Virus record (IMG/VR): IMGVR_UViG_3300009034_000013 | Coordinates: 1-64,000 of that record | Direction: 5' to 3' (one strand) | DNA length: 64,000 bases | Source: a virus | Shown here: in pieces, positions 7,256-64,000 of the stretch | How positions within the stretch are numbered: the stretch's first letter is position 1 | How the letters are laid out: each line of letters opens with the position of its first letter | Program-made: the position numbers and the translations under genes | Notes under the pieces: generated by a model | Told to the model about the DNA's origin: nothing | Databases searched by the model: none | The model's input: the letters and a program-made list of their open reading frames with translations, nothing else

Positions 7256-7529
7256 TGTTTATGGTTATATTTCACCAGAAAATCCTACATATCAAAAACA
7301 TGCTAAAGTTTTAAAAGCATGTATTAATGCTAGTATTGAGAAATTACCAGAGGAAACAGCAAGATATTTTAATAGCTATAAAAATATTCCTGATGTAGAA
7401 GATCTTGATAAAAAATTAGAAATTAAAATTCCAATACATGATAAATTTACTGACGATAGTGAAGAGTATGAAATATTTATACATGAATTACCGAAAGGAA
7501 TTTATAAAATAAAAATCATATATGCTTAA
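7239..7529 (+). CDS. hypothetical protein
   Basis: Coupled ORF with GGAGG RBS. Confidence 0.6.
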   Translation: MGMEINVYGYISPENPTYQKHAKVLKACINASIEKLPEETARYFNSYKNIPDVEDLDKKLEIKIPIHDKFTDDSEEYEIFIHELPKGIYKIKIIYA

Positions 7530-7543
7530 AAAGGAGGAAAAGA

Positions 7544-7822
7544 ATGGATAACAAAGAATTAAAGGACAAAGGCTTTGAATATGAAGTAAGAGAAAGAATA
7601 ATTAGTAATGAGGTTATTAAAGATGGCCCGAGAGCTGGAAAAAAGAAAGGCACAATGCCTGGTAAATTAATTGGTACTTACTTTCATAAAGGAATGTTAG
7701 CACCAAGAATGTTAATTAAGGTTAAAGGTAGAAATAGAAGAATCATTTGTGTTGACATTAATGGTAATGAAAGAATAGCAATAGTGGAGAAATGTGGAGA
7801 GTGGAGAAATGTAGAGAAATAA
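7544..7822 (+). CDS. hypothetical protein
   Basis: AAGGAGG RBS. Confidence 0.6.
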   Translation: MDNKELKDKGFEYEVRERIISNEVIKDGPRAGKKKGTMPGKLIGTYFHKGMLAPRMLIKVKGRNRRIICVDINGNERIAIVEKCGEWRNVEK

Positions 7823-7963
7823 TTATGGGATGTTGTGAAATATGTGGATCTGATAAAGAATTAATACAAATACAATCAAAAGATTTTGGAGAAAATTTTA
7901 AAGCAGCTAAAATACTTTGTAAAAAATGTATGATAGAAAATAATATAAAGGAGAAAAATAATT

Positions 7964-8251
7964 ATGGCGGGAAAAGTAATATCAACTGTTGATATGAAAG
8001 AAACAGTATTGACAGGAAAAGACAGAAATCTGGAAATTAGAAAAACAGATTTAGATTTTCCATTAACAGATACGGATCAGAGTAAGATTTGTTCTACTCA
8101 TAATATAGTCCCTAACAAACGATTACTTGAAAAAAAGGACATAAAAAGATTTATTAGGAGGCTAAAGGGAAATAAGAAAGAAGAAGTGGAAGAAAAGAAA
8201 AGAGGCAGACCAAAGAAAGTTGAAAAGGAAAATAAAATAAAGAAGGAGTAA
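7964..8251 (+). CDS. basic protein with AT-hook-like KRGRPKK
   Basis: AAGGAG RBS; KKRGRPKK motif. Confidence 0.55.
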   Translation: MAGKVISTVDMKETVLTGKDRNLEIRKTDLDFPLTDTDQSKICSTHNIVPNKRLLEKKDIKRFIRRLKGNKKEEVEEKKRGRPKKVEKENKIKKE

Positions 8252-38020: not shown

Positions 38021-38875
38021 ATGAATAGAAAAGAATTAAATGAAATTTTAAAATCACATAAAATGTGGTTAAACAATTCTGTAAACGGAAAAAAAGCTGA
38101 TTTATCAAATGCTAATTTATATAAAGCTAATCTAACAGATGTTAATCTATCACATGCTAATTTATTAAAAACTAATTTATCCTATGCAAATCTAATAGAC
38201 ACTAATTTATCAGGGGCTAATTTATCAAATGCTAATTTATATAAAACTGATCTATTAAGAACTAATTTATATATACCTAATTTATATGAAGCTAATTTAA
38301 CAGATGCTAATTTATATAAAGCTAATTTATATAAAGCTAATTTATCAGGGGCTAATTTATATAAAGCTGATCTATCCTATACTAATCTAACAGATGCTAA
38401 TTTATCAAGAGCCAATCTAACAGATGCTAATTTATCAAGAGCCAATCTAACAGATGCTAATTTATCTGGATGTAAAGGATTATTAAATCCAAAAGATTGG
38501 ATGAACAATAATTTTAAAAAAACAGAAAAAGGATATATCGTATATAAAGCAATTGGAGAAACATATTATAAAACCCCTAAATATTGGGAAATAAAAGAAG
38601 ATTCATATATAGAAGAAATATGTAATCAAAATAGAACTAATCCTGACGGATGTGGTATTAATTTTGCAACTAAGGATCGAGTACAAAATGAATTTAAAAA
38701 TAAAAAATATGATTTATGGGAATGTTTATTAGAATGGGAAGATTTAATCAATGTTTGTGTTCCCTATAATACTGATGGGGTAATAAGATGCAGAAGATTA
38801 AAACTTTTAAAAATAATAAATAAAGAAAATGAAATTGTCATGGAAGATAAGGAGAGAAAATGTTACAACAAATAA
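38021..38875 (+). CDS. pentapeptide-repeat protein
   Basis: About 25 A(N/D)Lxx repeats; C-terminal GYIVYK...GCGINF...DGVIRC domain. Confidence 0.9.
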   Translation: MNRKELNEILKSHKMWLNNSVNGKKADLSNANLYKANLTDVNLSHANLLKTNLSYANLIDTNLSGANLSNANLYKTDLLRTNLYIPNLYEANLTDANLYKANLYKANLSGANLYKADLSYTNLTDANLSRANLTDANLSRANLTDANLSGCKGLLNPKDWMNNNFKKTEKGYIVYKAIGETYYKTPKYWEIKEDSYIEEICNQNRTNPDGCGINFATKDRVQNEFKNKKYDLWECLLEWEDLINVCVPYNTDGVIRCRRLKLLKIINKENEIVMEDKERKCYNK

Positions 38876-57206: not shown

Positions 57207-58823
57207 ATGAATAAAATAGTTAAATATGAGAATAAAGAATTGAAAATAAAATTTAATTCTGAAGATAAAACAGAATTTTATAATATTCTTAATAATGTAA
57301 AAACATTATATGGCAGACAATTTCATTCTAATTCAAGAACATGGATAGCTCCTCCTACAAAAGAAAATATAGAATCACTTGCAAAATTTGGTTTTGATAT
57401 GGATGAATCTGTATTTATACTTTTTGAAAAGAAAAAAGAAAAAGATTTTTCTAAAATAAAATTGAAAAAAAAATTATCAAAAGAATTTTATCCTTTTCAA
57501 ATAGATGGCATAAAGTTTTTGGAAAGTAGAAAAGGTAATGGATTGATAGCTGATGCTATGGGTTTGGGAAAAACAATACAGGTATTAGGTTATTTTATAA
57601 TCCATCCAGAATTAAAACCCGTTTTAATAGTTTGTCCTGCTTCTGTAAAATTGAATTGGAAAAGAGAGATTGAAAAATGGACAGATTATAAAGATGAAGA
57701 TGTAAATATTTTATCAGGGAAAACTCCTTATAATACTACATTATCTTGTTTTTATATTATTAATTATGATATTTTAGACAGTTGGAAAGAAGTTTTAATT
57801 GAGAAAAAGTTTGCTATAATACTGTCTGATGAATGTCAATATATTTCTAATGGTCGATCTTTGAGGACAGAAGCATTTAAAAAAATAGCAAGGAAAGTGG
57901 ATAAAAGAATATTTCTGTCAGGTACACCAATAAGAAATAGTCCAAGAGAATTCTTTACAGTTCTGAATCTTTTAAATAAAAAATGTTTTCCTAATGAGTA
58001 TAAATATCTATATAGATTTTGCAATCCTAAATATAATGGTTTTGGCTGGCAGTTTAAAGGGGTAACAAATTGGAAAGAATTACATAATATTATTCAACCT
58101 CTTATGATTAGAAGAGAGAAAAAAGAAGTACTAAAGGATTTACCAGAAAAACGAAAAATAGTTGTACCACTTGAATGTTCAAAATTAGAATATGAAAAAT
58201 ATTTGGATGCTATTGAGAATATAAAGGAATGGGCAGGTGAGGATGAAAAGAAAAGTATAGTTGAAATAAAAAATAGAATGGAATTTATTTCTGGTCTTGC
58301 TTATGGAGCAAAAAGGAATTCAGTTATAAGTTGGATTAAAGATTATATTTCTACTGGAGAAAAATTAGTTGTATTTGGATATCACATTAAAGTATTAGAT
58401 GATATTGAAGCCGCTTTTTCAAAAGTGAAGACTGTTAGAATAGATGGTAGTGTAAAATCTGATGATAGACAAGGATTAGTTGATCAATTTCAAAATGATT
58501 CAGAAACAAAATTATTCATAGGACAGATAAAAGCAGCTGGAATTGGTATAACTTTGACAGCTGCTTCTGCTACTTGTTTTTTGGAATTTTCATGGACACC
58601 AGCAGATCATGAGCAAGCTGAGGATAGAGTTCATAGAATTGGGCAAAAGGCAGATTCGGTATCTGCTTATTATTTGATTGGGGAAGGGACTCTGGAAAAA
58701 GATATTGTAAAATTATTGCAAAGTAAACATGATACAATTAGTAAAGTGATAGATGGAAAGGAGAATGAAAATTTTTTTAAAAAGGATATTTTAATTGAAA
58801 TATTTAATGGTTTGAAATTATAA
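57207..58823 (+). CDS. SNF2-family (SMARCAL1/HARP-like) helicase
   Basis: ADAMGLGKT, DECQ, LSGTPIRN, GITLT, QAEDRVHRIGQ. Confidence 0.95.
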   Translation: MNKIVKYENKELKIKFNSEDKTEFYNILNNVKTLYGRQFHSNSRTWIAPPTKENIESLAKFGFDMDESVFILFEKKKEKDFSKIKLKKKLSKEFYPFQIDGIKFLESRKGNGLIADAMGLGKTIQVLGYFIIHPELKPVLIVCPASVKLNWKREIEKWTDYKDEDVNILSGKTPYNTTLSCFYIINYDILDSWKEVLIEKKFAIILSDECQYISNGRSLRTEAFKKIARKVDKRIFLSGTPIRNSPREFFTVLNLLNKKCFPNEYKYLYRFCNPKYNGFGWQFKGVTNWKELHNIIQPLMIRREKKEVLKDLPEKRKIVVPLECSKLEYEKYLDAIENIKEWAGEDEKKSIVEIKNRMEFISGLAYGAKRNSVISWIKDYISTGEKLVVFGYHIKVLDDIEAAFSKVKTVRIDGSVKSDDRQGLVDQFQNDSETKLFIGQIKAAGIGITLTAASATCFLEFSWTPADHEQAEDRVHRIGQKADSVSAYYLIGEGTLEKDIVKLLQSKHDTISKVIDGKENENFFKKDILIEIFNGLKL

Positions 58824-58838
58824 TGTAAATAAGAATCT

Positions 58839-58946
58839 GATGAGTAGAGTAAACCAAAGATAAAGAATGAGTTATATAGTGAAAGTAAACCAATAAAAGA
58901 GAGCGAGCCAGGCCGAGTGAGTAAACCAGCGCATGAGAGCGTATTT
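58839..58946 (+). ncRNA. TIGR-like dual-repeat guide array 1 (3 units, 36-nt period)
   Basis: GAGTAAACCA-type repeats at 58847, 58883, 58919 alternate with GAGCGAGCCA-type repeats at 58865, 58901, 58937; unique 8-nt spacers. Confidence 0.85.
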
Positions 58947-58996
58947 TTGTAAATGATCATTATATAATGATTAAATAATTTTATAGGGGATATCCG

Positions 58997-59686
58997 ATGG
59001 ATACTACAAAAAAATTAAAAGTTGGGGAATTGATCCTTGACTGGAATTTATGGCCACGTTATAAGGTGGAATTTTTAGATTCTACGAATATAACAAGAAT
59101 GAAACAAGCTATAAAAGCTGGGTTGAAACTTCCGTCTATTATAGTTAATAAAGCTGATTATAGAATAATAGATGGTTTTCACAGAGTAAAAGTTTATAGA
59201 GATTTATTTGGTGAAGAGCATGATATCACTGTTAAATTGAGAGAATTTAAAAATGATGCAGAAATGTTTATGGAATCTGCCAGACTAAATTCTGTTCATG
59301 GATTACCTTTAAGCCCACAAGATAAAGCTCATGTGATTTTAAGAGCAAGACGATTTAAATATCCTTTTCCAGTTATTGCACAAATAATAGGAATGGATGA
59401 AGATACTTTAAAAAAGTTTTATAAATCAAGAATAGCAAAAACTAAAAAAGGAGAAACTTTAGTTTTGGCGAATGGTGCTTCTGATTTAAGTGATTTGGAT
59501 AGACCATTAACAAATAATGAAGAAATACATGCAAGATCGGCTAATGGATGTAAAGCTTCTGTTAATATAGCTTTATTGTTATATGCTTTAAAAGCTGATA
59601 ATGTTAAACTAACAGAAAAAACAGTGTCAAATCTTATACAACTGAAAGAAGAAATAATAAGGATTTTAAAAAAGGCAGGTGTATAA
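58997..59686 (+). CDS. ParB/Srx-like protein with C-terminal HTH
   Basis: LWPR, LPSIIV...IIDGFHR, LNSVHGLPLS; stop codon overlaps the next ATG. Confidence 0.85.
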   Translation: MDTTKKLKVGELILDWNLWPRYKVEFLDSTNITRMKQAIKAGLKLPSIIVNKADYRIIDGFHRVKVYRDLFGEEHDITVKLREFKNDAEMFMESARLNSVHGLPLSPQDKAHVILRARRFKYPFPVIAQIIGMDEDTLKKFYKSRIAKTKKGETLVLANGASDLSDLDRPLTNNEEIHARSANGCKASVNIALLLYALKADNVKLTEKTVSNLIQLKEEIIRILKKAGV

Positions 59687-60480
59687 TGTTAAAAGATAAA
59701 AAAGTTGAGAATTCACTGAAAATATTGATAAGACAATATTATGATTATAGTAATGAAAGAATAGCTATGGATGGAAGATTAGGAATTAAGAAAGATGGGG
59801 AATTAAAGAAGAAAACTCCTGATAGAGATGAAATAATGTTGGCTTATTTATACACAAGAAGAAAAGAAATAATAACTGTGGAGAAAGAAATTGAAAAAGA
59901 AATCAGAAAAGAAGTGAACATACATACTCTGTGGAAAGGATTTTTCGAAGATGTTATAGGAGTGGGCCCAATAATGGCAGCGGTAATTATCACTGAATTT
60001 GATATTAAAAAAGCTAATACAGTTTCAAAATTATGGGCTTTTGCAGGGATAAATCCTGGTATAGTATTTGGGAAAACTGGAAAACTTGGTAATATAAAAA
60101 CCTCTAATATTTTGATAAGACAAGATAAAAAAACAAAAGGATTTTTATGTCCATATAATCAGTTTTTAAAGTGTAGATTGTTAGGTGTTTTGGCAGGAAG
60201 TTTTTTAAAAGCATCATCCCCATATAGTAAGTTTTACTATGATTATCGTTTTAGATTGGTGTCCTTAACAGATGAGGAAAAAGAAAAAAGAGGATTATGT
60301 AAGTCAAAAAATCCAACCGATAAAAATAAACCATATGCTAGTCATATAAATAACAGAGCTAAAAGATATATGATAAAGATGTTTTTGAAAGATTTATATG
60401 TTGCGTGGAGGACGTTAGAAGGATTACCAGTTAGAGATCCATATGCTGATGAATATTTGAATAGAAAACATGCTGGATAA
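59686..60480 (+). CDS. Nop-domain (IS110 C-terminal-like) RNA-binding protein, TasA-like
   Basis: Coiled coil, VIGVGPIMAAVII, SKLWAFAG, YNQFLK, HINNRAKRYMIKMFL; no RuvC/DEDD or HNH domain; flanked by the arrays. Confidence 0.82.
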   Translation: MLKDKKVENSLKILIRQYYDYSNERIAMDGRLGIKKDGELKKKTPDRDEIMLAYLYTRRKEIITVEKEIEKEIRKEVNIHTLWKGFFEDVIGVGPIMAAVIITEFDIKKANTVSKLWAFAGINPGIVFGKTGKLGNIKTSNILIRQDKKTKGFLCPYNQFLKCRLLGVLAGSFLKASSPYSKFYYDYRFRLVSLTDEEKEKRGLCKSKNPTDKNKPYASHINNRAKRYMIKMFLKDLYVAWRTLEGLPVRDPYADEYLNRKHAG

Positions 60481-60482
60481 TT

Positions 60483-60600
60483 GAGCGAGCTACAAATAAG
60501 GAGTAAACCATTGTTCTTGAGCGAGCCAGGAGATTTGAGTAAACCAAGAAAATAGAGCGAGTCAAGGGAAGAGAGAAAACCATCTCTATAGAACGTATTA
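60483..60600 (+). ncRNA. TIGR-like dual-repeat guide array 2 (3 units, 36-nt period)
   Basis: GAGCGAGCCA-type repeats at 60483, 60519, 60555, 60591; GAGTAAACCA-type repeats at 60501, 60537, 60573; 8-nt spacers. Confidence 0.9.
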
Positions 60601-60690
60601 AAAAGGCAGGATAAAAAAACCATGCCTAATTTGAAAGTTTTTTTCAAATTTTGTGTTTAAATTATTATAATATAAGTATAGGGGAATAAA

Positions 60691-62535
60691 ATGTATGAAA
60701 TAATGAAATTATTTAAATCAGTATTAGTAAAACAGAAAAATGTTACAGGATCTCCTTATATTAGAAAAGGAATATTATATACTCCTGATGTTGGAAATGA
60801 ATATAAGGATATTGATTCTATAATAAATATGGCAGAAAAGATATTTTTACTTTCTGCAAAACAAATAAATAGTTCTTTTCATAAATCATGGCAGAAAATC
60901 AGAGATGTAAATATAGAACAGCTTGTATTAGAGCAAATTATCCATTATATAACTACATATGGTTTTGAATCTCTAAATATTTATAATAGCGAATCTGTAT
61001 ATATTCCAAGAGAGAAATTAGAATTACCAGAAATAGATATAGATAAAATTGAGTTGATTGTTATAAAAGGAATTACTAAAGAAGAATTAAAGGAAAAATT
61101 AATGAAAATGATGTGTTCTGGAATTGCTCTTGATGAAAATACTATTAAAGATATTGTAAATATTATTACTGATAATGATATTGGATTTGATAATGAAGAT
61201 GTTAGAAATATAAAAAATAAAGAAATAAAATCAATTATAATGGATAAATTAAGTTTAGTACCAGATGATCCAGTTGAATATTTGAGATATATTATTTATA
61301 AAATGACAGGTGAAACTTTGTTGATTAAAAATAAAGAGTTAATAGAAAAGATAAAAGAAAATCAGAAAATATTTTCTCTGTTAAAAATTGATGAACATAG
61401 TCAAAGAAAATTAGCCAGTATATTTTATCGATTCAAACCTTTATTTTTAGCAATGAAAGGAACCCCAACAACAAATAAAATAATAAATAGAATAAGAAAA
61501 TTAGCAAAGAAATATCATAGACCGATGAAACAAGATTATCTAAATAATATAACAAATCAAAAGTATATAGATATACTTTTTTTCAAGAAAGAACTTAATA
61601 AGGTTAATATTTTCAGAAAAATAAGATTAGCAAATGCTATAAAATATAGAATGTTAAATAGTGGTTCAATTGTATACAGAATAAGAAATGGAAAAAGTTA
61701 TTCTACAGAAAATAAAAAGAGAGATAAAGATTATTATGATAATATATATGAAATAATAGAAAAGAGTATAAAGGATGATATAAAAGAGATCATAGGAAAT
61801 AAGAAAATATATATACCAGATTATATAAAGTATACTTTACCATCTTCTGAAAAACAATTTTCTGATAATGTTCCATTAGGTACAAATATAACTGTGAAAG
61901 AGAATATGGTTTTTGGGGTGTACTGGAAGAATGTTGATAAAAATAGAATTGATTTGGATTTGTCTTTATTATCTGTTGATAGTAAATTTGGATGGGATGC
62001 AAGATATAGAAATGAAGAAAGAAGTATATTGTTTTCTGGGGATATGACAGATGCTTGTGATGGAGCTTCTGAATTATATTACATAGAAAAAAATAAACCC
62101 GGTATTTATTTAGTGATGTTAAATTATTATAATTATAATAAATACGAAGAAAAAGATATTCCAGTTCCTTTTAGAATATTTATTGCAGATGAAAAAATAA
62201 ATTTGATTGAAAAGAATTATATGGTTAATCCTGAAAATATATTGATAAATATAAATACTGAAATAAAAAGAAAACAGAAATTATTAGGATTAGTAAAAAT
62301 AGATGAAAATAAAAGTATATTTTATTTTTGTGAAACAAACATAGGAATGTCAATAACATCAAGTGATAATGAATATATGAAACATTGCAGAAATTATTTA
62401 AAAGATTTTTATAGTAATTTAATGAATTTAAATGATATGATAGGAGATGTAACTAAGAAAAATGAATGTGATATTGATTTATCACCTAAAAATCTAACAA
62501 AAGATAAATTATTGGATATTATAATAAAGACATAA
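60691..62535 (+). CDS. helical N-terminal + TerD-like C-terminal protein
   Basis: FGVYW...IDLDLS...GWD...FSGDMTDA.DGASE TerD-like motif; long helical, basic N-terminal region. Confidence 0.65.
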   Translation: MYEIMKLFKSVLVKQKNVTGSPYIRKGILYTPDVGNEYKDIDSIINMAEKIFLLSAKQINSSFHKSWQKIRDVNIEQLVLEQIIHYITTYGFESLNIYNSESVYIPREKLELPEIDIDKIELIVIKGITKEELKEKLMKMMCSGIALDENTIKDIVNIITDNDIGFDNEDVRNIKNKEIKSIIMDKLSLVPDDPVEYLRYIIYKMTGETLLIKNKELIEKIKENQKIFSLLKIDEHSQRKLASIFYRFKPLFLAMKGTPTTNKIINRIRKLAKKYHRPMKQDYLNNITNQKYIDILFFKKELNKVNIFRKIRLANAIKYRMLNSGSIVYRIRNGKSYSTENKKRDKDYYDNIYEIIEKSIKDDIKEIIGNKKIYIPDYIKYTLPSSEKQFSDNVPLGTNITVKENMVFGVYWKNVDKNRIDLDLSLLSVDSKFGWDARYRNEERSILFSGDMTDACDGASELYYIEKNKPGIYLVMLNYYNYNKYEEKDIPVPFRIFIADEKINLIEKNYMVNPENILININTEIKRKQKLLGLVKIDENKSIFYFCETNIGMSITSSDNEYMKHCRNYLKDFYSNLMNLNDMIGDVTKKNECDIDLSPKNLTKDKLLDIIIKT

Positions 62536-62789
62536 AAAGTTCCTATGAATAGATTATGGAGGAGAGATCCTCTATTAAATTACTTTTTGTCTTTAAAATA
62601 AAAGCATAGAAAGTTCCTATAAATAAAAAACTTGAAATTTTTTACTTTCTGTTTTTAATGATAAGTCAAAGAAAGTTCCTATAAATAAAAACTATGGGTG
62701 TTTACTTACTTTCCGACTTTTTTAGAAATTATTGGGATCAAAGGAAGTTCCTAAAAATTAAGACTGCAAATCTATTACTTCCCGATTCT
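62525..62789 (+). ncRNA. array of four covarying stem-loop units with conserved AAGTTCCTA...TTACTT core
   Basis: Units at 62525-95, 62599-657, 62663-719, 62734-789; compensatory changes in the stems. Confidence 0.8.
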
Positions 62790-62814
62790 TATTTAATAGT
62801 ATAGGAGAAAGAAT

Positions 62815-62979
62815 ATGACAATTAAACAAGTGACATTAAGAAGAGTTTTTAATTTAGGTAATTATGAAACTCTTCATATAGAATTACAAGCGGATATAGA
62901 TAAAAATGAAGATGTAAAAGAAGTATTGGACGATTTACATCAAGAAGCTAAAAAATATAAAAGATATACGAAATCTTAA
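62815..62979 (+). CDS. small conserved phage protein
   Basis: AGGAG RBS; FNLGNYET motif; below the ORF-track size cutoff. Confidence 0.65.
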   Translation: MTIKQVTLRRVFNLGNYETLHIELQADIDKNEDVKEVLDDLHQEAKKYKRYTKS

Positions 62980-62987
62980 TAATATTT

Positions 62988-64000
62988 ATGAAAAGGAAGA
63001 AGATTGATTTGTTTCAGGAGAGACAAATTATAATTAATATGATTGTATCAACCAGATTTTTAAAAGAAATATCAAATATAGTTCAACCAAAATATTTTAA
63101 ATCACAATATGGAAAATTAATAAGTAGATGGATTTTAGAATATTGGAATGAATTTAAAATTGCTCCTGGAAAACAAATCCAAAATATTTTTTATCAAAAA
63201 GGAACATTTATTCAAGACGAAGATGATCGTGAAGATGTTTCAGATTTTTTATCTTTTCTATCTAAAGAATGGGAGGAGATAGAAAAAGAACAAAATATTG
63301 ATTTTTTAATTAAGAATGCTATTCATTATTTGAAAATAAGATCATTAGAAATATTAAAAGATAAATTGGAATCCTCTATTATTGAAGGAAATCCGCTTAA
63401 GGGGGAACAAAATATTATAGAATATAATAGAGTTGAAAAAATAAGTGGAATTGGAGTATCTTTGTTAAAAGATAGTTCTGCTATTATATCTGCCTTTCTT
63501 GAAGAGAATGAGATAATGTTTAAATTTCCTGGAGTGTTTGGGGAAGTATGTGGATTATTTCTTCGAGGAGATTTAGTGTCATTTTTAGCTGCCGCAAAAA
63601 AGGGAAAAACTTGGCTTCAACTTTATATAGGAGAAACAGCAGCGGCTTATGGTTATAAGACGATAATATTTACATTAGAGATGACACAAAATCAAATATT
63701 AAGAAGGGGATGGCAATTACTTGTTGGAATGCCAAGAATATCTGGATCAATTTTAATTCCACGATTTGAAAAAACAAATACTGATAAAAAGAAAAGATGG
63801 AAAGTGATAATGAGTAAGAAAAAGAAAAAGGGAGTAAATGTTTCAAATATAGAGAAGGAACAGAAAAAGTTAAAAACTATTTTTAGATCAGGTGATTTGA
63901 AAATAGTAACTCTACCAGCTTATTCAGCAACGATAGAAGATTTGGAAGCATATTTAGATAATTTTTATTATTTTGAGAATTATGTTCCTGATGTTATAAT
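62988..64000 (+). CDS. DnaB-like replicative helicase (3'-truncated)
   Basis: Frame reads MKRKKIDLFQERQII...RGDLVSFLAAAKKGKTW...IFTLEM and appears open to the window end. Confidence 0.85.
   Translation, partial: MKRKKIDLFQERQIIINMIVSTRFLKEISNIVQPKYFKSQYGKLISRWILEYWNEFKIAPGKQIQNIFYQKGTFIQDEDDREDVSDFLSFLSKEWEEIEKEQNIDFLIKNAIHYLKIRSLEILKDKLESSIIEGNPLKGEQNIIEYNRVEKISGIGVSLLKDSSAIISAFLEENEIMFKFPGVFGEVCGLFLRGDLVSFLAAAKKGKTWLQLYIGETAAAYGYKTIIFTLEMTQNQILRRGWQLLVGMPRISGSILIPRFEKTNTDKKKRWKVIMSKKKKKGVNVSNIEKEQKKLKTIFRSGDLKIVTLPAYSATIEDLEAYLDNFYYFENYVPDVI

Follow-up and report, generated by a model that had tools for sequence, protein, structure and literature searches.

A phage protein family with a TerD fold and its linked family of handle RNAs: a candidate RNA–protein particle

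Introduction

What does an array of stem-loops do when it begins on the stop codon of a phage gene and when its copies differ in sequence while retaining the same paired shape? An IMG/VR virus record of 83.8 kb (IMGVR_UViG_3300009034_000013; 26% G+C, about 74% complete) raises this question in its first 64 kb. This 64-kb stretch, hereafter the window, contains an open reading frame (ORF) of 614 amino acids (aa) at 60691–62535 on the + strand, preceded by a good ribosome-binding site, and, 3′ of it, an array of four units (62526–62789), the first of which overlaps the gene's stop codon. An earlier reading of the letters alone, which we call the original prediction, proposed that these units are multi-copy small RNAs bound by the protein encoded just upstream. 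The same arrangement could reflect DNA sites, leader-type elements in an mRNA, an RNA antitoxin or processing signals, and we weigh each of these possibilities where the relevant evidence appears. We find that the units belong to a widespread family of structured RNAs that accompanies one unnamed protein family, and we propose that the two probably form an RNA–protein particle (RNP).

Results

The four units belong to an uncatalogued family of structured RNAs

The 45 units used to build a covariance model, R1, all came from other loci; the window was left out, the helix–bulge–helix arrangement was supplied as the structure, and matches were counted at E≤1e-3. R1 matched all four window units, with E values from 3e-10 to 2e-8, and they lie where they had been placed by the original prediction, the first of them on the stop codon. 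Elsewhere in the window the next best match had an E value of about 1, and the model found no copy beyond the four in the whole 83.8-kb record. The sequence AGTTCCTAWRAAT likewise occurs four times in the window, each time within a unit.

Across the family, a constant part, which we call the handle, carries a variable tip. The first element of the handle is an outer helix whose closing pair, C-G, does not vary. A 3-nucleotide (nt) bulge, A-N-A, then lies across from one bulged C, and the inner helix beyond it has 6 bp, the last two being G-C and U-A. An invariant UCCUA follows, and an invariant U comes before the 3′ strand of the inner helix. Sites that are invariant or nearly so are the closing C-G and, in the bulge, A7 and A9; the same holds for the bulged C, the G-C and U-A pairs at the end of the inner helix, UCCU(A) and the U before the 3′ strand. 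Total unit length varies from 46 to 128 nt across loci. The stems and bulges drawn in the original prediction hold for units 3 and 4; for units 1 and 2 we amended them to a 5′ AUA bulge and one bulged U on the 3′ strand, such that unit 1 reads AAAGAC-AUA-AAAAGU...ACUUUU-U-GUCUUU. The GAGA tetraloop described for unit 1 is present.

Minimum-free-energy (MFE) folding of the + strand recovered the outer stem, bulge and inner stem of every unit. The z-score of the whole-array fold, −1.05, is unremarkable, as is to be expected at 26% G+C; the evidence for RNA structure comes from covariation, not from folding energy. In an alignment of 135 distinct sequences, 96.6% of cells are paired, compared with 75% in column shuffles and 36–52% when partners are slid. 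This figure is somewhat inflated because the alignment was fitted to R1, but neither the variety of pair types nor the strand bias can stem from that fitting. Compensatory changes are found at 10 of the 12 pairs, and a single pair occurs as AU (52), GC (32), UA (25) and CG (23). G-U pairs are present and their A-C equivalents are absent; because the former are tolerated and the latter are not, the RNA strand is the gene strand. This agrees with the covarying + strand RNA that had been read from the window stems. In a strict pattern scan, the gene strand carried 203 units and the opposite strand 2. Within the window, a direct-repeat comparison showed that the copies share only 62–86% identity.

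Rfam searches, at the gathering threshold over the whole window and at E≤10 over 62300–63000, returned just two chance-level matches, and the Rfam Y_RNA and YrlA models matched neither the window nor 14 related loci. The RNA family is absent from Rfam; it is widespread and uncatalogued, and each of the four units is a gene for a small structured RNA that belongs to it.

These data also bear on the idea that the units are double-stranded DNA sites, that is, iterons or operators of the replication module related to repeats at 45.7 kb. The array does lie between replication-type genes (SNF2 helicase and ParB-like genes upstream, a DnaB-like helicase gene downstream), and the window contains 14 copies of TTCCTATA where 7.5 would be expected, three of them near 45.7–45.8 kb. 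However, the compensatory changes and G-U pairs fit one strand only, R1 finds nothing at 45.7 kb, and across unrelated genomes, chromosomal RtcB operons included, the family tracks the protein gene rather than replication genes. The link to the 45.7-kb iterons, raised in the original prediction as a way in which it might fail, is unsupported, and we consider a DNA-site explanation exceedingly improbable.

A CRISPR or TIGR array was also considered and rejected, as it had been from the start: the constant parts are two helix halves around a variable part, there is no repeat–spacer periodicity, and no repeat is shared with the 36-nt-period, TIGR-like array of the window.

Variable tips include anticodon-arm-like hairpins and tRNA-like bodies

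MFE folding of short tips is noisy, giving no hairpin in 60 of 170, and tips were instead judged by counting stems and loops against shuffles. Most tips across the family are short hairpins. The anticodon-loop signature Y-U-NNN-R-N, in a 7-nt loop on a stem of 4 bp or more, was seen 24 times, compared with 4.8 ± 2.1 in shuffles, and the CUUGAAA loop of window unit 2 is one of this set. All four window tips are simple hairpins, two of them with anticodon-loop-like loops.

In relatives the tip can also be a T-arm or a whole tRNA-like body. RNAalifold, applied to 13 long units, gave the handle together with covarying T- and D-arms, and the bodies occur in three topologies. In one, the handle sits at the anticodon-stem end and a tetraloop closes the acceptor stem, which is the layout of YrlA; in another, the handle sits at the acceptor end and GCAA caps the anticodon arm; in the last, the acceptor stem is open and a loop-closed handle takes the place of the anticodon loop. 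None of the tRNA-like bodies has an anticodon, although Rfam scores the open-acceptor kind as tRNA. That these are circular permutations of one architecture is strong evidence for a folded, modular RNA.

Open-acceptor RNAs with the handle in place of the anticodon loop lie, for example, at 2635–2748 in locus L104, 2704–2802 in L106, 2768–2883 in L026 and about 2585–2700 in L075. Four of seven such RNAs carry G3-U70, the alanine identity pair, and two of those four also have A73; judged from these identity elements, they might be charged by alanyl-tRNA synthetase as transfer-messenger RNA (tmRNA) is. The combination of an anticodon-less tRNA-like body, in places with G3-U70, and a dedicated protein resembles tmRNA and SmpB. 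In contrast to tmRNA, these RNAs have no mRNA-like reading frame and no set of pseudoknots, the Rfam tmRNA model matches true tmRNA only, and the window units lack any tRNA-like body.

In units with tRNA-like bodies (for example, L031 2780–2894, L022 4900–4990 and L027 2800–2935), GGAAC often occurs a few bases past UCCUAU(n)AAAA. It is the exact complement of the handle's invariant GUUCC, and an alternative helix or a pseudoknot is possible.

The RNAs accompany one protein family

Metagenomes contain more than 2,000 relatives of the 614-aa protein, about 620–660 aa long. Among 1.84 billion representatives searched, 1,719 clusters at 50% identity were found with E≤1e-3 and 1,139 with E≤1e-30. 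Homologues in cultured phages are those of the Synechococcus phages S-CRM01 and S-CBWM1 and of the gut phage Phass-1. The nearest kin (P0002–P0004) are 55–61% identical to the 614-aa protein; a scan of viral and metagenome contigs with this protein found no close relative, and a contig scan with the four closest proteins yielded only relatives of 49% identity or less.

We searched with R1 in a set of 83 viral loci, consisting of 80 IMG/VR loci reached through the protein together with S-CRM01, S-CBWM1 and Phass-1. The search beside homologues of the 614-aa gene, suggested as a check when the array was first described, was strongly positive: it found 226 units in the 83 loci, 100% of them on the gene strand. 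Units lie directly upstream of the gene in 76 of the 83 loci, usually as one to four copies and up to six, and eight sources, the window included, have units downstream of it. A separate regular-expression scan of the same loci placed most units 0–400 nt upstream of the gene. At least one unit was found in essentially every locus with usable upstream DNA; the five loci missed by the pattern scan were either matched by R1 or had no upstream DNA. A second, independent set comprised 33 contigs of bacterial and archaeal genomes, with protein identities down to 32%; here R1 gave 46 matches, all on the gene strand and nearly all just upstream. The RNA family, with a defined structure and strand, is a demonstrated, near-obligate companion of the protein family. 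Linkage and covariation also support the proposal of multi-copy RNAs that would be bound by the upstream protein.

The exact pattern GGCATANNNNGTTCCTAT is a less reliable guide. In viral contigs its occurrences were mostly due to chance, with no R1 match in 28 of 31 loci that had room on both sides and no family gene, and pattern-only counts should therefore be read with caution. The other three loci contain true units with no family gene nearby. Only one of these is on a complete genome, and this 424-kb phage does encode a family protein. In this genome (424,163 bp with terminal repeats; L165, L241 and L242), a 679-aa family gene lies at 19.6–21.5 kb, and handle RNAs lie at 414.5, 419.9, 423.4, 13.5 and 19.5 kb on the + strand and at 320.4 kb on the − strand. 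Units that are scattered over tens of kilobases, with one about 300 kb away on the other strand, suggest that the RNAs act in trans.

The position of the units nevertheless raises the alternative that they are cis-acting leader or untranslated-region elements through which the protein or a host factor, bound to the protein's own mRNA, sets translation, stability or processing, with no functional free small RNA. Ribosomal proteins and the T4 proteins RegA and gp32 exert such control through their own mRNAs. The same-strand location directly upstream of the gene in most viral loci agrees with this, as does the proximity of the nearest unit to the start codon, often 10–40 nt; in the window there is no terminator-like site between gene and array, or anywhere across 60300–63100 in a pattern scan. 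However, all four window units are downstream of the gene, and the dispersed units of the 424-kb phage, one of them on the other strand, are hard to reconcile with a leader. In addition, the tips bear elaborate tRNA-like bodies in three permutations, and units are packed head to tail with tRNAs like extra members of a tRNA array. We consider a purely cis-acting role unlikely; feedback through the proximal unit could exist alongside a trans-acting role.

Many family loci (L088–L120) are on contigs binned as archaeal metagenome-assembled genomes, assigned to Pacearchaeota, Woesearchaeota, Nanoarchaeota and Promethearchaeota. These are probably viral contigs binned with their hosts, and a range for the family that extends to archaeal viruses is possible.

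The protein joins a family-specific helical region to a TerD fold

Searches of Pfam, PHROG, NCBIfam and PADLOC gave no family match for the 614-aa protein. An AlphaFold2 (AF2) model of the full-length protein (predicted local distance difference test score, pLDDT, 80.6) consists of a mostly helical N-terminal 400 residues and a C-terminal beta-sandwich. The helical and TerD-like character assigned to the protein in the original prediction is borne out by structure comparison of the sandwich (residues about 400–570). VIA-align gave Z 11.5 to 2qz7 (root-mean-square deviation 3.1, 145 residues aligned) and Z 10.2 to TerD 2kxt, the next rows being at 5.6, and Foldseek gave probability 1.0 to 2kxt, 2qz7 and 2qng. 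By sequence, no member of alignment A1 reaches E≤0.05 with the Pfam TerD model. The A1 consensus retains DLDxS-like and SGDxT-like motifs in this domain, which we take to resemble the calcium sites of TerD. The beta-sandwich is thus shared with the TerD family (PDB 2kxt, 2qz7), whereas the roughly 400 N-terminal residues fused to it are specific to the present family; in addition, the gene was never found here in Ter operons and is always with RNA genes.

The N-terminal part contains the most conserved motifs of the family, NSSFHKSW and EQxxHYxTTYGF, and several invariant R or K residues, and it is the putative RNA-binding part. Folded alone with AF2 it reached a pLDDT of 72.9, which is only moderately confident. 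A fold search with it gave a best Z of 6.8, over a 70-residue helical hairpin, and the ESM Atlas yielded nothing beyond unnamed clusters of the family itself.

Neighbouring genes include tRNA arrays and RNA-repair genes

No protein neighbour of the family gene is universal, and the minimal system is therefore the protein and its RNAs. Of 60 loci scanned, 21 have the family gene within a tRNA array or next to one, as do S-CRM01 and S-CBWM1, and in L044 and L001 units begin directly after tRNA 3′ ends. In Phass-1 (L003), three handle RNAs (7421–7633) precede a full tmRNA gene (7641–8079, 77.9 bits) by 8 nt; they lie some 1.5 kb downstream of the family gene. Six loci have RtcB as a neighbour and five the CCA-adding enzyme; in Chryseobacterium the neighbours include RlaP, with the order RtcB, RNAs, protein, RlaP in C. 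defluvii. RlaP adds nucleotides to cleaved tRNA ends ahead of ligation (bioRxiv 10.64898/2025.12.29.696909).

The location of units at tRNA 3′ ends and inside tRNA arrays, together with a compact conserved core that has invariant unpaired nucleotides, could also suggest that they are punctuation, self-cleaving or RNase-directing, of polycistronic tRNA or mRNA transcripts, the protein being incidental or a cofactor. Small ribozymes of the theta or HDV-like (hepatitis delta virus-like) kind do occur in phage tRNA arrays. Yet no Rfam ribozyme family matches the units, the array is kept in phages without tRNAs such as that of the window, and a self-sufficient ribozyme would not be expected to pair so strictly with one protein family. 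Punctuation is, in our judgement, quite improbable.

The Ro60/Y RNA particle is the closest parallel in design

The original prediction likened the system to Ro60 and its Y RNAs; among known systems Ro60 (Rsr, with TROVE and vWA domains) is the closest, above all with the bacterial and phage RNAs YrlA, YrlB and Yrn1. In bacteria, Y RNA genes lie beside the protein gene and encode a constant bulged stem and a variable module that is tRNA-like in YrlA and Yrn1 (PMC4201824), and in the Thermus phage phiLo two Yrl RNAs (Yrl1/Yrl2) lie upstream of the Ro60 gene (PMC12135203). The system described here has the same layout. One or more small RNA genes adjoin a gene for a protein of about 500–600 aa with a helical part and a beta-rich domain of metal-site type, and the RNA combines a constant bulged stem bearing conserved nucleotides with a variable module. 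In some RNAs this module is an anticodon-less tRNA-like body with T- and D-arms, in different permutations; many relatives have this Y RNA trait, and the four window units are simple hairpins. Both systems are found in phages and bacteria, and both recur with RtcB RNA-repair genes.

Despite these similarities, the parts themselves differ. The C-terminal domain has a TerD fold, not vWA. Ro-binding is associated with GGUCCGA in animals and with GNCGAAN0-1G or CGAA in bacteria and phages, within a bulged terminal stem (PMC4201824, PMC12135203); the handle has no GNCGAA or CGAA motif and has its own invariant set (C-G, the A-N-A bulge, the bulged C and GU-UCCUA). Neither the window protein nor any of 32 family members matched Pfam TROVE, a profile search of PDB sequences did not find Ro60, and hhalign of the family profile against Chryseobacterium Ro60 gave a probability of 0.3%. 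The TROVE model found nothing in this phage, and control genomes were positive. Ro60 was not among the listed matches of Foldseek and VIA-align for the full-length and N-terminal AF2 models. The parallel is one of layout and, in relatives, of tRNA-like bodies; in these matches, and in an N-terminal model of moderate confidence, there is no sign of a TROVE/HEAT ring.

Three Chryseobacterium genomes (pennae, vrystaatense and defluvii; L243–L245 versus L104, L106 and L119) contain both systems in separate places. One locus encodes a 505-aa TROVE protein with an adjoining YrlA-like RNA (RF02553, 37.9 bits), and the second comprises RtcB, a tRNA-like RNA, three handle RNAs, the TerD-fold protein and RlaP. 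R1 gave no match beside the Chryseobacterium Ro60 gene, and the Rfam YrlA match beside true Ro60 serves as a positive control for the negative Y RNA searches of our loci. The best reading is that the parallel is one of design, not of descent, and that the pair is a non-homologous analogue of the Ro60/Y RNA particle, the function of which is itself still debated.

Other protein–RNA systems are more distant

A short-unit RNA array adjoining a protein gene, and inferred to bind its product, also recalls ToxI/ToxN, and the original prediction drew this comparison. If the pair were of this type III-like kind, the array RNAs would be antitoxins or inhibitors that neutralize a harmful activity of the protein. 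In toxIN an RNA array does lie next to the toxin gene, and a small-RNA array by the gene, usually upstream of it, and strict linkage are present here as well. However, the units do not form a near-identical series: conservation is confined to the handle, the stems covary freely, lengths span a wide range and the tips are modular tRNA parts. The protein, with a TerD fold and a helical part, has no nuclease signature, no ToxN-like features and no PADLOC match, and its carriers are mainly lytic-type phage contigs, in which it lies among replication and tRNA genes. A search for a ToxN/AbiQ-type endoribonuclease gave no PADLOC, Pfam or fold match for the 614-aa protein, although such an activity could escape these searches. 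The antitoxin comparison did not hold up, and we regard this explanation as very improbable.

Burroughs and Aravind (2016) reportedly described SPFH/Band-7 proteins with cognate tRNA-like RNA in RNA-repair operons; there too, a predicted scaffold protein and a tRNA-like non-coding RNA of its own are encoded next to RNA ligases. The protein fold (TerD plus a novel helical part) and the RNA family are both different here. We found no published description of this protein–RNA pair. A 2026 preprint on three tRNA-mimic families was considered and set aside, the motifs being other ones.

A trans-acting RNP is the probable reading

We think it fairly probable that the protein and the handle RNAs form an undescribed, trans-acting RNP. 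The RNAs would be co-transcribed with the gene and excised from the long transcript as tRNAs are, and the 614-aa protein would bind the handle, such that each RNA is a protein-held scaffold displaying its tip. Such a particle could offer its tips, whether plain hairpins, anticodon-arm look-alikes or tRNA-like bodies, to enzymes that handle tRNA or to tRNA nucleases of the host. In loci with an upstream array, translation feedback could come in addition from the unit closest to the start codon.

With less confidence than for the particle itself, we suggest that it probably acts on tRNA damage. Because the neighbours include tRNA arrays, RtcB, the CCA-adding enzyme and RlaP, a role in controlling tRNA or RNA damage during infection, by repair, quality control or decoy, would fit. 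It could gather tRNA-handling enzymes on damaged RNA, as a platform would, or draw off host defences that cut tRNA, as a decoy. A more ambitious and rather doubtful version is that this is a new RNP class, evolved independently of Ro60/Y RNA, in which the protein grips a universal handle and the RNAs show interchangeable tRNA parts, namely look-alikes of the anticodon arm, T-arms or complete tRNA bodies without an anticodon, some of these with G3-U70. It would constitute a modular counter-defence and RNA-repair platform that senses, soaks up or repairs the damage inflicted by tRNA-cutting defences of the host.

Several observations weigh against the proposed RNP. In most loci the last unit ends 10–40 nt before the start codon, where a purely cis-acting leader role is possible. 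The N-terminal part of the protein has no recognizable RNA-binding fold, and its most conserved segments (residues 56–120 and 325–340) are of low confidence in AF2 models; judging from the models, these segments may become ordered only on ligand. Neighbours such as RtcB, the CCA-adding enzyme and RlaP are a minority, and phage replication genes dominate. In the window itself, units 1 and 2 have U in place of the near-invariant bulged C, the R1 scores of the units fall in the lower half of the family, and the phage has no tRNA gene. The window array is indeed atypical for the family in lying downstream of the gene, in a phage without tRNA genes, with simple hairpin tips only. These traits are no argument against family membership and fit a very A+T-rich genome.

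A large protein family unnamed in Pfam, PHROGs, NCBIfam and PADLOC thus has a partner RNA that is missing from Rfam. If the two do form a particle, it would be a second, independently evolved instance of the Ro60/Y RNA design, a protein-held RNA scaffold presenting a tRNA mimic. The system is present in phage tRNA arrays and in the RtcB/RlaP repair operons of cultured flavobacteria, and it could make the link between phage tRNA arrays, tRNA-targeting defence and RNA repair directly testable, with S-CRM01, S-CBWM1 and Chryseobacterium as tractable systems. A 'non-coding' stretch that recurs in many phage genomes would thereby gain an annotation as well.

Features of the locus

The features of the gene and the array are collected in Table 1. 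The promoter-like site ahead of the gene, matched by its pattern, is likely the start of a transcript that would run through the 614-aa gene and the RNA array.

Table 1. Coordinates of the 614-aa gene, its candidate promoter and the four RNA units in the window
Feature	Position	Strand	Details	Basis
Promoter-like site TTCAAA-17-TATAAT	60643–60671	+	10/12 positions fit; pattern match only	Consensus scan
N-terminal, mostly helical part, residues 1–399	60691–61887	+		ORF, alignments A1 and A4, AF2 models
TerD-fold beta-sandwich, residues about 400–570	61888–62400	+		Structure comparison
C-terminal helical tail and stop codon	62401–62535	+	Stop codon TAA 62533–62535, within unit 1 handle	
RNA unit 1, 69 nt	62526–62594	+	Outer helix 62526–62531/62589–62594; bulge AUA 62532–62534; inner helix 62535–62540/62582–62587; bulged U 62588; UCCUAUGAAU at 62541–62550; tip a hairpin with GAGA tetraloop	R1 41.3 bits, E 1.2e-8; fold
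RNA unit 2, 57 nt	62600–62656	+	Outer helix 62600–62605/62651–62656; bulge AUA 62606–62608; inner helix 62609–62614/62644–62649; bulged U 62650; tip an A6/U6 stem with 7-nt loop CUUGAAA, anticodon-loop-like	R1 40.1 bits, E 2.4e-8; loop analysis
RNA unit 3, 59 nt	62662–62720	+	Outer helix 62662–62667/62715–62720; bulge AAA 62668–62670; inner helix 62671–62676/62708–62713; bulged C 62714; tip a hairpin AAAC-UAUGGGU-GUUU	R1 47.1 bits, E 3.3e-10; fold
RNA unit 4, 56 nt	62734–62789	+	Outer helix 62734–62739/62784–62789 (two G-U pairs); bulge AAA 62740–62742; inner helix 62743–62748/62777–62782; bulged C 62783; tip a short hairpin, loop CUGCAAA	R1 42.3 bits, E 6.2e-9; fold

ARAGORN found zero tRNA genes, and no cloverleaf with an anticodon, in the window or the remainder of the phage record, and there is no Rfam tRNA match in the window. 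A blastn search of 58000–64000 against phages gave zero matches. The end of unit 4 is followed after 25 nt by a 54-aa ORF and then by the DnaB-like helicase gene. Upstream of the 614-aa gene are the SNF2 helicase gene, the ParB-like gene, a 264-aa 'transposase-like' gene (phrog_4285) and the short 36-nt-period array.

The 264-aa gene (59686–60480) matches phrog_4285 ('transposase') with E 1.6e-38 and has a weak match to Transposase_20. Directly after it, the 36-nt-period array (60500–60600) consists of about 2.5 units of GAGTAAACC-N9-GAGCGAG-N11; it resembles TIGR-type arrays and has no sequence in common with the handle RNAs. Two tandem-repeat tracts lie further away, one at 1–313 with a 12/24-nt period and 13 copies of a AAGTTAGTAATG-like repeat, and the other at 38092–38466 with a 15/30/45-nt period and a CTAATTTAT-like repeat.

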